Shown: piece by piece, positions 12,861 to 17,141 of the stretch
Position numbering within the stretch: position 1 is the first letter of the stretch
Layout: each line of letters opens with the position of its first letter
Source: Ignavibacteriales bacterium
Lineage (GTDB): Bacteria; Bacteroidota; Ignavibacteria; UBA10030; UBA6906
NCBI GenBank assembly: GCA_037441705.1
Contig: JBBIRR010000062.1
Location: 1-17,141 of the forward strand
Length of the DNA stretch: 17,141 nt
Direction: 5' to 3'
Notes under the pieces: generated by a model
Seen by the model: only the letters and a program-made list of their open reading frames with translations
Told to the model about the DNA's origin: nothing
The model's database searches: none
Position numbers and translations under genes: made by a program

Positions 12861-13285
12861 ATGCCCCTCAGCGAAGCCGACACCCGCGCCAAACTAATTG
12901 ACCCAGCGCTTCACGCCCGCGGCTGGACTGAGAATCTGATTCGCCGCGAGGAGACCGCAGGAGCCATTGAGGTCATAGACGGTAAGCCACGGAAGCGCGC
13001 CCGCGGCCGTGTGGACTACCTGTTGCGCATAGCCGTCAATGCCGAAAGCCAGCCGGTGGCCGTCGCGCTGATCGAAGCCAAGACCGAACACCTGCCGCCC
13101 GATCACGGACTTGAGCAGGCCAAGCTTTACGCCTCCTGTAAACGGCTCAATGTGCCTTTCTCTTTGCCAGCAACGGGCATATGTTCGTAGAGTTCGAGGC
13201 ATTAACTGGCAAGAGAGGTAAGTCTAGATGGCTGAATGAGTTTTTGAAACCAGATTGTTTTCAAGGATATGGCTTAAGCAAATGA
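12861..13285 (+). pseudogene. hsdR: Frameshifted, truncated type I restriction enzyme R subunit (EcoEI/EcoAI-like HsdR N-terminal nuclease domain)
   Basis: SEADTRAKLIDPAL..RGW, GRVDYLL, ALIEAK (PD-(D/E)xK), GLEQAKLYA. After ...LNVPF at 13160 the homologous-looking sequence continues in a shifted frame (FASNGHMFVEFEALTG...LNEF) to TGA at 13283-13285. No helicase domains follow. Confidence 0.8.
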
Positions 13286-13941
13286 AAGGCCAGATTAAAT
13301 CCAAACAGCGCGTTGCCGAATACGGCGAGGTTTTCACCAAGTCGGAAATCGTGAAGGCCATGCTCGACCTGGTGAAGCACGAGACCGAGCGGATTGATTC
13401 GCGCTTTCTAGAGCCGGCCTGCGGGACGGGGAATTTTCTGACGGAAATCCTTCGCCGCAAACTTGACCGGGTAGAAAAAACCTACCGCCGCAGCCAGTTG
13501 GACTTCGAGCGCTATCTGGTGCTGGCAGTATCGTCTATTTACGGCATCGATATTCTGGAGGACAATGTCATCGCCTGCCGGGAGCGGCTCTTTCAAATGG
13601 CCAACGAGCGTTATACCGCTTTGTTCAAGAAAGAGGCCAAAGAGGCCTGCCGCCTCTCCCTGCGCTACATCCTCCAAAAAAATATTATTTGGGGCGACGC
13701 GCTATCCCTTCAAACGGTTGGGAAGAATCCTGTTCCGATTGTCTTTTCTGAATGGACGCTGGTGAATGGAAGCAAAATCAAACGACGGGACTTTGTCTAT
13801 AAAGAATTAATTGAGCAATCGAGTCTGCGTGAATTGCCGTTGTTTTCCGATGTTGGGGAACATGTTTTCATTCCTTCACCGATCGCAGATTACCCACCGG
13901 TGCATTTTTTGGAGATTTCCCATGCCTATGGCGACAACTAA
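13282..13941 (+). CDS. DNA methyltransferase-like protein, SAM-binding portion only (219 aa)
   Basis: [14 protein letters not shown] (motif X), [12 protein letters not shown] (I), [11 protein letters not shown] (II), NIIWGDAL (III); no NPPY/DPPY/SPPY catalytic motif IV. ATG 13282 is preferred over TTG 13255. Confidence 0.85.
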
Positions 13942-15472
13942 TTACAACCCCGACGTCCTCTCCTGTCTGGCGAATTTGAGCAGTGATGAAGTCTTCACCC
14001 CGCCCAACATCGTCAACCAGATGTTGGACCTGCTGCCGGCGAACCTCTGGCACGACCCGAACGTGACCTTTCTGGACCCGGCGTGCAAGACTGGCGTCTT
14101 TCTGCGCGAAATCGCCAAACGGCTGCTCGCCGGGCTGGAAGAAGCCATTCCCGACCGGCAGGAGCGCATCAACCATATCTTTACCAGGCAACTCTTTGGC
14201 ATCGCCATCACCGAAATCACGGGCCTGCTCTCGCGCCGCAGCGTCTACTGCTCCAAGACCGCCAACGGCAGATACTCAGTCGTGGAAGGATTTGGCGACG
14301 AACAGGGCAATATCCGCTTCCGGCGCATCGAACACACTTGGGAAGACGGCCGCTGCGCTTGGTGCGGCGCCAGCCGCAGCGAATACGACCGCGGCCCGGA
14401 CCTGGAAAGCCACGCCTATGAATTTATTCACACCGATAAACCGGAGGAGATTTTTAACATGCAGTTCGATGTCATTGTCGGCAATCCGCCATATCAGTTG
14501 AGTGATGGGGGTGGGGCAGGATCAAGTGCAATACCTATTTACAATTTGTTCGTGACCCAAGCAAAGAAATTACGTCCAAGACATTTGACGATGATTATAC
14601 CTTCTCGTTGGTTTTCAGGTGGCAAAGGCTTGGATCAGTTTAGACATGAAATGTTGAATGATAGGAGAATCCGACATCTTGTGGATTTCTCTGACTCTAT
14701 CGATTGCTTTCCAGGAGTTGATATTGCTGGTGGAGTTTGTTACTTCTTATGGGATAGAGACAATCCAGGTGATTGTAGAGTGGTCAATATTCATAAGGGC
14801 AAGTCAACTATTTCTGTTAGACCTTTGAATGAATTTGAAACCTTTATTAGAGACAGTATTGCTGTAGCAATAATAAAGAAAGTGAAGGCTAAAGGAGAAG
14901 CGTCTCTATCTGAGATTGTTTCAAGCAGGAAGCCTTTTGGTCTTGAATCGAAGCAAAGGTCATACTCAAAAGGGGATTTAAGATTGGTTTGGAGCGGTGG
15001 AGAGGGAGTAATACCGTCGTCTAAAGTGCCATCTGGTAAAAACCTAATAGACAAATGGAAAGTATTGCTATCCAAAACATCACATGACCATGCAGGGCAA
15101 CCAGATAAGGATGGAAAGAGAAGAGTTCTTTCTCGTATTGAAGTATTGCCTCCAAACACAGTCTGTACAGAATCATATTTAATAGTTGGACCGTTTGCCA
15201 ATAAAAAACAAGCGCAAAATATGGAGATATATTTAAAAACAAAGTTTTGTCGCTTTCTTATTTCAACAATTCTGCTAACTCAGAATATTGCAAGAGACAA
15301 GTTTAGCTTCGTACCGTTACCAGATTTGAGTGTAGCATGGACGGATGCTCTATTATATAAAAAATATGGCTTATCACCTGAAGAAATTGAGTTTATCGAA
15401 TCACGCATTCGCCCGATGGAAAACGGTGAGGAGGTTCTCAAAATAGAAAACGAAGAGGACGACGATGCCTAA
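13922..15472 (+). CDS. Eco57I-domain N6-adenine DNA methyltransferase (gamma-class order) with C-terminal target-recognition region
   Basis: [63 protein letters not shown]-terminal [22 protein letters not shown]. Start at 13922 (GGAG SD at 13911) or 13928; the ORF-track TTG 13811 is too long. Confidence 0.9.
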
Positions 15473-17141
15473 CGACTTTTTCCCACCCCGGCCGTCTGCT
15501 GCGCCCAAAATCTATGCCTACGAGGACACCCATCCGCAGTACGCGGGGTTGCTCAAGATCGGCTATACCACCAAGGACGTGCGCGAACGCGTGGCGGCGC
15601 AATATCCCACCACCCGCCCAGGTGATCCGCCTTACCGTATCGTGCTGGAAGAATCGGCCATGCGCAATGACGGCACGACCTTTACCGACCGCGACGTGCA
15701 CCGCTACTTGCGCGAGCGCGGGATCCCCAACCCGGAAGGCGAGTGGTTTCAGTGTACCGTGGAAGACGTGCGCGCCGCCATCCTGGCCATACAACGGGGA
15801 GAATTGAACGAAGAGCAGCGCACCCTCGTTTTCTCTATGCGGCCGGAACAACAGCAGGCCGTTGAACGAACCGCTGCTTACTTTCGGCAGTTCCACCCCA
15901 AAACCACCGCCAAGCCTTCGCATTTCCTCTGGAACGCCAAGATGCGCTTCGGCAAGACCTTCGCCGCCTACCAACTGGCCAAGAAAATGGGCTGGAAAAA
16001 GATTCTAGTACTGACCTTCAAGCCCGCTGTGCAAAGCGCCTGGGAATCAGACCTCAAAAGCCATGTAGATTTCACCGGTTGGCAGTTCATCTCCAGCAGG
16101 GATCTGCCCGTCCAAGGCGACCCGGTCTACGACAAGAGCCGCCCGGTGGTGTGCTTTGGCTCCTTTCAGGATTACCTGGGAAAGAATCCCAGCACCGGCG
16201 GCATCAAGACCAAGAACGAATGGGTGCACGCCACCCACTGGGACTGCGTCATCCTGGACGAATACCACTACGGCGCCTGGCGTGAAAAAGCCAAAGACCT
16301 TTTCGAGGGCGAGGAGGCAGATGAGATCCGCTTTGCTCTGGGCGAGGCAGCGGAATTCCTGAAAGAGGCCGACGAGGAACTGGAGAATTTCCTCCCCATC
16401 ACCAGCGACCACTACCTGTATCTTTCCGGCACGCCCTTTCGTGCCATCGCCTCGGGAGAGTTCATCGAAGAACAGATTTTCAACTGGACCTATTCGGACG
16501 AACAGCAGGCCAAAGAGTCGTGGCAAGGCCCGGATAACCCCTACGCTATGCTGCCGCGTATGGTGCTCCTTACCTATCAACTGCCGGATGAGATCCGCGA
16601 AATCGCCCTTCAGGGCGAGTTCGATGAGTTCGACCTGAACACCTTCTTTTCCGCCACCGGTCATGGGCATTTCGCTCAATTCAGATACGAGGACGAGGTT
16701 CAAAAATGGCTGGATCTAATCCGCGGCGCCTTCTTGCCCGCCGCGGTGGATGACCTCAAGCTCGGCAAAGAGCGGCGGCCGCCTCTGCCCTTTTCCGACC
16801 GGCGGCTGCTCAACGTCCTTTCGCATACGCTGTGGTTCTTGCCCAGCGTTGCCGCCTGTCATGCTATGGCTAACCTGTTGGCCGAGCGGCAAAACCGCTT
16901 TTACCGCGATTACGAGGTCATCGTGGCCGCAGGCGCAGAGGCGGGCATCGGTGTGGATGCCCTAAAACCGGTGCTACGGGCAATGGGCGACCCCCTCCAA
17001 ACCAAGACCATTACCTTGACGTGCGGCAAGCTGACCACCGGCGTCACGGTGCGGCCCTGGACGGGCATCTTCATGCTGCGCAACTCCTCCAGCCCAGAAA
17101 CCTACTTCCAGGCCGCTTTCCGCGTGCAATCGCCGTGGACC
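15465..17141 (+). CDS. T5orf172 (GIY-YIG superfamily) nuclease-SF2 DExH helicase fusion, putative restriction subunit; partial, open at window end
   Basis: Not in the ORF track because there is no stop. Manual translation: [46 protein letters not shown]...DRDVHRYL...[24 protein letters not shown] (Walker A); ILDEYHYG (DEYH at 16257-16268); [26 protein letters not shown]. 559 codons; overlaps the MTase stop by 8 nt. Confidence 0.9.

Follow-up and report, generated by a model that had tools for sequence, protein, structure and literature searches.

The window analysed here is a 17,141-nucleotide (nt) stretch of DNA from an Ignavibacteriales bacterium (assembly GCA_037441705.1, 3.83 Mb in 92 contigs) and corresponds to the whole of contig JBBIRR010000062.1. 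It ends in three genes on the plus strand, named here M1, M2 and R, which resemble the components of a restriction-modification (RM) system: a small protein with the features of half a DNA methylase, a catalytic methylase carrying its own recognition domain, and a superfamily 2 (SF2) motor protein with a nuclease domain (Table 1). A sequence-only reading of the same DNA had proposed three overlapping genes here, and the open reading frame (ORF) list and translations confirmed their coordinates. The ATG at 13282 was consistent in the alignment with the starts of M1 homologues, and M2 has an alternative start at the ATG at 13928. The overlap between M1 and M2 amounts to 20 nt, reduced to 14 nt with the alternative start, and that between M2 and R to 8 nt. 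The R gene runs into the contig end and represents the first 559 of about 840-855 residues; the remaining ~290 residues were absent from all other contigs, since a tblastn search with a full-length homologue as query matched only the window. M1, M2 and R all lacked a named NCBIfam match above the cut-offs.

Table 1. Features of the M1-M2-R locus and of the split phage genes used for comparison (positions are those of the window, except for phage PTm1).
Feature	Nucleotide positions	Residues or sequence	Strand	Basis or remark
Decayed hsdR 5' fragment, EcoAI-type	12861-13285		+	NCBIfam 7.4e-16, first ~100 HsdR residues
M1	13282-13941	219 amino acids (aa)	+	ORF list and translation
M1 motif X		GEVFT	+	Alignment of 46 sequences
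M1 motif I, canonical	13405-13440		+	Family form FLEPACGxGNFL (46 sequences)
M1 motif II		YGID	+	D or E in family, YG[IV][DE] (46 sequences)
M1 motif III		NIIWGDAL	+	Family form NxxxGDAL (46 sequences)
M2	13922-15472	516 aa	+	ORF list and translation
M2 N-terminal half		1-176	+	M1 paralogue
M2 motif I, lysine variant	14069-14104	FLDPACKTG	+	Family form DPxxKxG, K56 invariant (45 sequences)
M2 zinc-ribbon-like insert	14249-14365	C110/H138/C145/C148	+	Alignment, 45 sequences
Low-GC (guanine plus cytosine) segment inside M2	14450-15400	~177-495	+	GC 0.32-0.43 versus 0.56-0.65 flanking
M2 NPPY	14483-14494	188-191	+	Invariant in 45 aligned sequences
M2 recognition domain, C-terminal		~300-500	+	Alignment; C-terminal region variable
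R	15465-17141	559 aa, open at contig end	+	ORF list and translation
R T5orf172/GIY-YIG-superfamily nuclease domain	15513-15788		+	Pfam
R SF2 helicase-like motor, ResIII match	15834-16301		+	Pfam; GKT, DEYH, SGT and QxxFR motifs
Tenacibaculum phage PTm1 (jumbo, L085), catalytic/recognition half; M1-like half	2501-3535; 3926-4933			Separate genes

When plasmid records were searched with R as query, 81 were matched, including pDrdVI, a 15.5-kb plasmid of Deinococcus wulumuqiensis NEB 479. This plasmid bears a trio in the same order, annotated as "DNA methyltransferase" (212 aa), "Eco57I ... methylase domain-containing protein" (539 aa) and "DEAD/DEAH box helicase family protein" (851 aa). M1 was 44% identical to the first over 214 residues, that is, over its full length, M2 was 48% identical to the second over 529 aligned columns, and R was 56% identical to the third over the available 559 residues. 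The sequence features that characterise the DrdVI family were found in the window, namely a small M1, an Eco57I-type M2 with NPPY and a C-terminal recognition domain, and a GIY-YIG-type nuclease-translocase R, encoded in the order M1-M2-R on one strand. RM models of PADLOC, which we take to be derived from REBASE, also matched parts of the operon: PDLC03626 ("REase_MTase_IIG") covered R residues 118-556 and M2 residues 180-499, and PDLC03375 covered M2 residues 180-499 only. The published names in the family are M1.DrdVI, M2.DrdVI and DrdVI, described as "split methylase/RM genes", and their assignment to the individual genes of pDrdVI is our inference from the wording of the papers and the 15.5-kb plasmid map. 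Cloned M1-2.DrdVI produces N6-methyladenine at GCAGCC and is listed as type IIG (PMC6430315), while DrdVI itself has been described as a translocase fused to a restriction endonuclease that has a GIY-YIG domain (PMC4996451). M1-M2.MaeIV from Methanococcus aeolicus, another member that has been cloned, recognises GCACY (PMC10113651). Since GCAGCC contains adenine on one strand only, the DrdVI modification must be a hemimethylation.

By comparison with DrdVI and MaeIV (type IIG in REBASE), with which they share the same three genes, order, domain content and full-length similarity, the genes of the window appear to constitute a new member of the DrdVI family of RM systems, and this membership is well supported. 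The novelty that the sequence-only reading had implied for the layout does not hold, as the trio is collinear with pDrdVI and a full-length match to a named system was largely obtained. In contrast to DrdVI, the recognition domain has diverged and the R gene is interrupted where the contig stops; because of this divergence, the target site probably differs from that of DrdVI. The family is already named and its methylation has been shown, whereas its mechanism of restriction is undescribed in the literature found. As the sequence-only reading had anticipated, no mechanistic study was encountered: the search, which left REBASE itself and the supplements of the cited papers outside, returned no paper on DrdVI-family cleavage or on the role of M1.

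M2 matched the Pfam profile Eco57I (2.2e-37), and a sequence search against solved structures returned nothing for it. Modelled alone with AlphaFold2, it formed a complete methylase fold plus recognition domain with a predicted local distance difference test (pLDDT) score of 86.2. The top Foldseek matches of this model were CamA (6e-19), BrxX/PglX, M.BseCI, MmeI and M.TaqI, on account of which M2 was placed in the gamma class, and its elements follow the gamma order of motifs X, I and IV followed by the C-terminal recognition domain. These matches bear out an RM-type operon built around a gamma-order N6-adenine methylase with its own C-terminal recognition domain, as had been read from the sequence. 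The N-terminal half of M2 is related to M1 (hhalign probability of 97.8% over M1 residues 14-92 and M2 residues 21-97). It departs from the canonical form in that motif II (FGIAIT) has no acidic residue and the first glycine of motif I is missing, both in 45 of 45 sequences.

M1 gave weaker profile matches, to MmeI_Mtase (3e-6) and N6_Mtase (6e-4), and just the N-terminal half of both profiles was covered; PADLOC likewise returned partial methylase matches for it. Across the 46-sequence alignment, M1 bears neither NPPY nor a recognition domain and contains 23 invariant columns. A hairpin after motif III includes invariant E157, W158 and R168, with D170 present in at least 90% of the sequences. 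Its AlphaFold2 model was a compact five-strand domain (pLDDT 89.7), for which Foldseek found weak matches, to the N-terminal half of CamA only (best E 5e-3), and the search of solved structures gave one weak match, to a type I HsdM. The length of M1 was stable at 200-253 aa in the 74 complete copies measured, and an exhaustive profile search recovered 1149 representative clusters at E<=1e-30, mostly of 200-290 aa. These data speak to the possibility that M1 is only the functionless remnant of a disrupted methylase gene. M1 does cover only half of the known methylase profiles and does lie directly after a decayed hsdR piece; nevertheless, a pseudogene would not be found in 77 of 77 assessable loci with so stable a length and so many invariant columns, nor form clusters in such numbers or be collinear with the small methylase gene of pDrdVI, and we regard this explanation as refuted by the conservation.

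The canonical and variant motifs are distributed over the two proteins in a complementary manner. The motif count covered 160 loci (80 genomic and 80 metagenomic, many of them incomplete): a small ORF with canonical motif I and lacking NPPY was present in 154, the lysine-variant motif I and NPPY occurred in one ORF in 144, and canonical motif I and NPPY were combined in one ORF in none. Other architectures were found outside this set. Among the best 150 relatives in the M1 profile search, 4 had at least 500 aa, and in three of these (P0060, P0061 and P0129; the fourth, P0101, was left out) an M1-type half with canonical motifs is joined directly to a half containing NPPY and the recognition domain, with no pseudo-half between them; a metagenome scan with P0061 returned classical split loci only. 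Plasmids of Enterococcus and Pediococcus encode R-M2 fusion proteins of 1417-1446 aa. The Enterococcus fusion, when aligned, retained the lysine variant and lacked the zinc-ribbon-like insert, and a separate M1-like gene with 36% identity to M1 was situated directly upstream of it (the small upstream gene of Pediococcus was left out of the comparison). In phage PTm1, gp277 consists of the catalytic half alone (344 aa, 38% identity to M2 residues 180-499), and gp279, two genes beyond, is M1-like (hhalign 93.7%, E 1.9e-7). No helicase or nuclease gene was present in the 6-kb PTm1 stretch examined, the other 219 kb lying outside it and the record not having been searched for R. These split halves may constitute an orphan methylase directed against the DrdVI-type RM family.

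Because an M1-type half goes with the catalytic half in every architecture checked and the M2 pseudo-half does not, M1 is favoured as the working half that binds S-adenosylmethionine (AdoMet). From motif content, the natural fusions and the published joint cloning, we infer that M1 and M2 jointly form a DNA adenine methylase, M2 contributing the NPPY loop and recognition and M1 the canonical AdoMet-binding half. M1 could instead stand outside the catalytic methylase, leaving methylation to M2 alone, and serve to sense AdoMet or to form a bridge, thereby permitting or holding back the action of R. We consider this unlikely. In its favour, the high-confidence model of M2 alone already shows a full methylase fold, M1 is predicted to form an independent five-strand domain with a conserved hairpin of its own, and in type I and III enzymes AdoMet acts allosterically as a cofactor of restriction. 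Such a role is difficult to reconcile, however, with the loss of the motif II acid and of the first motif I glycine from every M2 sequence aligned, with the direct fusion of M1-type halves to catalytic halves in three representatives, and with PTm1, where an M1-like gene is kept beside the catalytic half and no R gene was found in the 6 kb covered. A bolder version of the joint methylase, which we hold to be speculative and rather improbable, treats the N-terminal half of M2 as a conserved pseudo-half, sitting where the AdoMet half of the catalytic module would be, and M1 as the true cofactor-binding half. Their exchange on one catalytic and recognition module would switch the protein between a methylation-competent state (with M1) and a cofactor-blind, recognition-only state that hands unmodified sites to R. 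If true, modification and restriction would share a single recognition module in a manner new for RM systems.

With respect to R, Pfam identified T5orf172 at residues 17-108 (7.9e-12) and ResIII at residues 124-279 (1.3e-5), in agreement with the earlier description of a separate half-methylase accompanied by an SF2 motor with an N-terminal GIY-YIG-superfamily domain. In an alignment of 41 sequences including this copy, the invariant residues of the T5orf172 domain were I16, Y17, K31, G33, T35, R42, E93 and W94, and those of the helicase region were FGKT at 162-165 (GKT at 163-165), DEYH at 265-268, SGTP at 321-324, and Q549, F552 and R553. As neither these helicase motifs nor the nuclease residues Y17, R42 and E93 vary in any of the sequences, the present one among them, R looks active. 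R, like M2, had no match in the sequence search against solved structures. Of the complete homologues at 66 loci, 45 measured 818-866 aa and the other 21 measured 929-1039 aa. The C-terminal ~290 residues, which fall outside the window, are highly conserved in homologues and gave no Pfam match above the cut-off and no sequence match in the PDB. The longer class (for example, L020:12137-15037) has a C-terminal extension, in one example of which a weak, sub-threshold PcrA/UvrD tudor match was seen. A full M1-M2-R trio with an R of this longer class (974 aa) was also carried by phage NatCom_35866 (L086, 4199-9430), whose record additionally contains an excisionase gene.

Relatives of M2 were found in at least 567 species genomes in a scan of one genome per species, and the conservation counts were made on the best 80 loci, which span many phyla and include one archaeal metagenome-assembled genome. 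M1 was located immediately upstream on the same strand in 77 of these loci, the remaining 3 having at most 2 bases upstream, and R downstream on the same strand in 72, the remaining 8 having at most 869 bases downstream; the genes often overlapped. The M1-M2-R arrangement is therefore far beyond chance, and conservation of the trio is strong, every miss having short flanks. None of the 24 genomes searched within the family of the source organism, of which 11 share its genus, yielded R, and among 16 genomes searched from the order's other families it was found in 1. Such a patchy distribution is as expected for a horizontally moving defence module, and the trio is, in this genome, an ordinary horizontally acquired RM system.

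Within the operon, the recognition region of M2 has a history of its own. The low-GC segment takes in both the catalytic half of M2 and its recognition domain. The locus L003 was the closest relative for M1 (67%), M2 residues 1-176 (85%) and R (84%), whereas for M2 residues 301-500 it was L002 (77%), with L003 reaching just 49%. Because the drop in GC coincides with a closest relative that differs from that of the rest of the operon, this segment is read as a recombined specificity cassette, probably acquired by recombination from a lower-GC donor. In a descriptive comparison of 26 loci (325 non-independent pairs), M1, the N-terminal half of M2 and R co-varied in pairwise identity (rho 0.72-0.80), whereas the recognition region tracked none of them (rho 0.05, 0.10 and 0.00). 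The recognition domain is thus an exchangeable cassette that sets specificity and is shuffled independently of the rest.

When compared to other RM and defence systems, the layout lies outside types I, III and ISP, as the sequence-only reading had maintained, since their defining features are lacking. A type I system is rejected because there is no S gene and the recognition domain lies within M2; the sole type I trace is the decayed hsdR fragment upstream. In type III systems, Mod is a beta-class methylase that forms a homodimer, and Res has a C-terminal PD-(D/E)xK nuclease. The EcoP15I complex (Mod2Res1) shares with our operon a methylase separate from an ATP-dependent helicase-nuclease, and an asymmetric site methylated on one strand, but M2 has the gamma order and the nuclease of R is an N-terminal T5orf172 domain, so type III is rejected as well. 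Type ISP, represented by LlaGI and LlaBIII, is the best working analogy, with an SF2 motor, a gamma-class adenine methylase and a recognition domain in common. These enzymes methylate asymmetric sites on one strand and cleave through translocation and collision (PMC3553950). They differ from the present system in being single polypeptides with an Mrr-type PD-(D/E)xK nuclease and no M1 partner, and membership in type ISP is rejected on the grounds of three separate genes and a T5orf172 rather than Mrr nuclease. The Pediococcus and Enterococcus fusions, which correspond to PDLC03626, have R and M2 in one polypeptide in a type ISP-like layout, whereas here these are separate genes; R was ~33-36% and M2 25% identical to the two parts of the fusions. 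Strict type IIG, with nuclease and methylase in one chain and no ATP motor, does not describe the operon either, as the nuclease sits on the SF2 motor protein, although the REBASE label is IIG nonetheless.

Two further systems combine comparable parts. In Bacillus subtilis, DnmA-YeeB-YeeC, with homologues in Vibrio crassostreae, has an asymmetric-site adenine methylase beside an SF2 helicase and a T5orf172 protein, and was reported to confer no protection against three phages and to leave transformation unaffected (PMC9973331). As described there, DnmA is an MmeI-like methylase in one piece that lacks an M1 partner, and the helicase and T5orf172 belong to two proteins, T5orf172 being C-terminal. 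Membership is rejected, since the present operon divides its methylase between M1 and M2 and carries T5orf172 at the N-terminus of the helicase protein. The other system, MANTIS (Gao_RL), has been reported to rely on hemimethylation of asymmetric sites; its methylase depends on accessory proteins, and its helicase-nuclease effector favours pairs of sites in inverted orientation (bioRxiv 10.64898/2026.09.23.753747). By the same account, MANTIS needs the AAA+ ATPase MtsA, MtsB and a SauUSI-like effector, none of which is present here, and it is rejected on account of the missing AAA+ ATPase and the different effector. PADLOC on the window returned only the RM-type methylase and IIG models, weak partial methylase matches from BREX (PglX) and MADS (mad2), one candidate T5orf172 model and a weak HamB match, and the other marker proteins of MANTIS, BREX, DISARM and similar systems (AAA+ MtsA, PglZ, DrmA/B) were unmatched.

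We consider it about 75% probable that the three genes form a DrdVI-family RM operon in which M1 and M2 act as a one-strand methylase and R cuts unmodified DNA in an ATP-dependent manner, the restriction steps being a proposal. By analogy with the systems above, M1 and M2 together would recognise and methylate one strand of a short asymmetric site. R would be recruited to unmodified sites, its SF2 ATPase would move or communicate along the DNA, and cutting would be performed by its N-terminal T5orf172/GIY-YIG-type nuclease. Because only one strand would be marked, self-protection after replication would most likely rest on cleavage needing a pair of unmodified sites in a suitable orientation, as is the case for types III and ISP and for MANTIS. 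In types III and ISP, one strand is marked and cutting needs two unmodified sites in a set orientation that communicate through the ATPase, which spares newly replicated DNA. A two-site, orientation-dependent scheme has recently been reported for MANTIS (bioRxiv 10.64898/2026.09.23.753747).

Several points weigh against this interpretation. The literature searched contains no data on DNA cleavage or phage restriction by a member of the family, and the published papers nowhere state that M2 alone is inactive. In the model of M2 alone, the protein already appears complete, with its own N-terminal half packed in place, so that completion in trans by M1 looks sterically awkward, and for this reason M1 may be a regulatory or structural partner instead. 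R is incomplete in the assembly, and this copy may not be intact. Finally, DnmA-YeeB-YeeC, related but distinct, was reported to restrict neither phages nor DNA taken up by transformation (PMC9973331), so operons of similar appearance can be non-restricting. The last two points lead to an alternative in which the operon is a non-restricting relic, with M1 and M2 as an orphan epigenetic methylase and an inactive or truncated R, as proposed for the B. subtilis system, where the reported results showed neither phage protection nor an effect on transformation. The remainder of R is indeed absent from the assembly, and the adjoining hsdR has already decayed. Nonetheless, this copy keeps every invariant column of the R alignment over 559 residues, its gene overlaps are like those of intact operons, the contig end marks an assembly limit and gives no evidence of truncation, and the recent exchange of the recognition cassette points to selection still acting on specificity, so that we judge a relic to be quite improbable.

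The hsdR fragment runs for 109 codons to a stop at 13190, after which reading resumes in another frame (FASNGHMFVEFE...) up to a stop codon overlapping the first codon of M1; a search of the assembly found no further piece matching it. Regarding the interval between M2 and R, it exceeded 240 nt in 34 of 72 related loci. The 32 gap ORFs scanned include RhuM, Bro-N (once with Fic), YhcG/DUF1016 nucleases, AAA_21 with RloB, HEPN ApeA plus AbiU2, DUF3800 and a SIR2-HerA pair, and examples are located at L004:12623-13615, L012:5444-6514, L032:12266-14260, L037:11489-12517 and L075:12118-16790. The M2-R gap is a recurrent slot for defence-type genes, and these insertions resemble the genes embedded in type I RM loci; in the window itself, no accessory defence-type gene lies between M2 and R. 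The insertions in related loci, the adjoining hsdR remnant and the patchy distribution together speak for a role in defence. The window also contains, at 3127-12496 on the minus strand, unrelated genes encoding a 1142-aa Reg_prop/Y_Y_Y histidine kinase, a LuxR-type response regulator, a single-domain receiver, an FG-GAP/ASPIC protein, and an LVIVD-repeat protein with a type IX secretion sorting domain.

The family to which the operon appears to belong is very common, being present in at least 567 species-level genomes of many phyla and also on plasmids and in phages, and no paper was found on its restriction or on its two-piece methylase. Three of its features have not been described together mechanistically, namely a GIY-YIG-superfamily nuclease on an SF2 motor, a gamma-class methylase that likely marks one strand, and an obligatory half-methylase partner. 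The complementary split of motifs between M1 and M2, the natural fusions and splits, the independently moving recognition cassette and the conserved M2-R slot that lodges defence-type genes provide new handles on this family.

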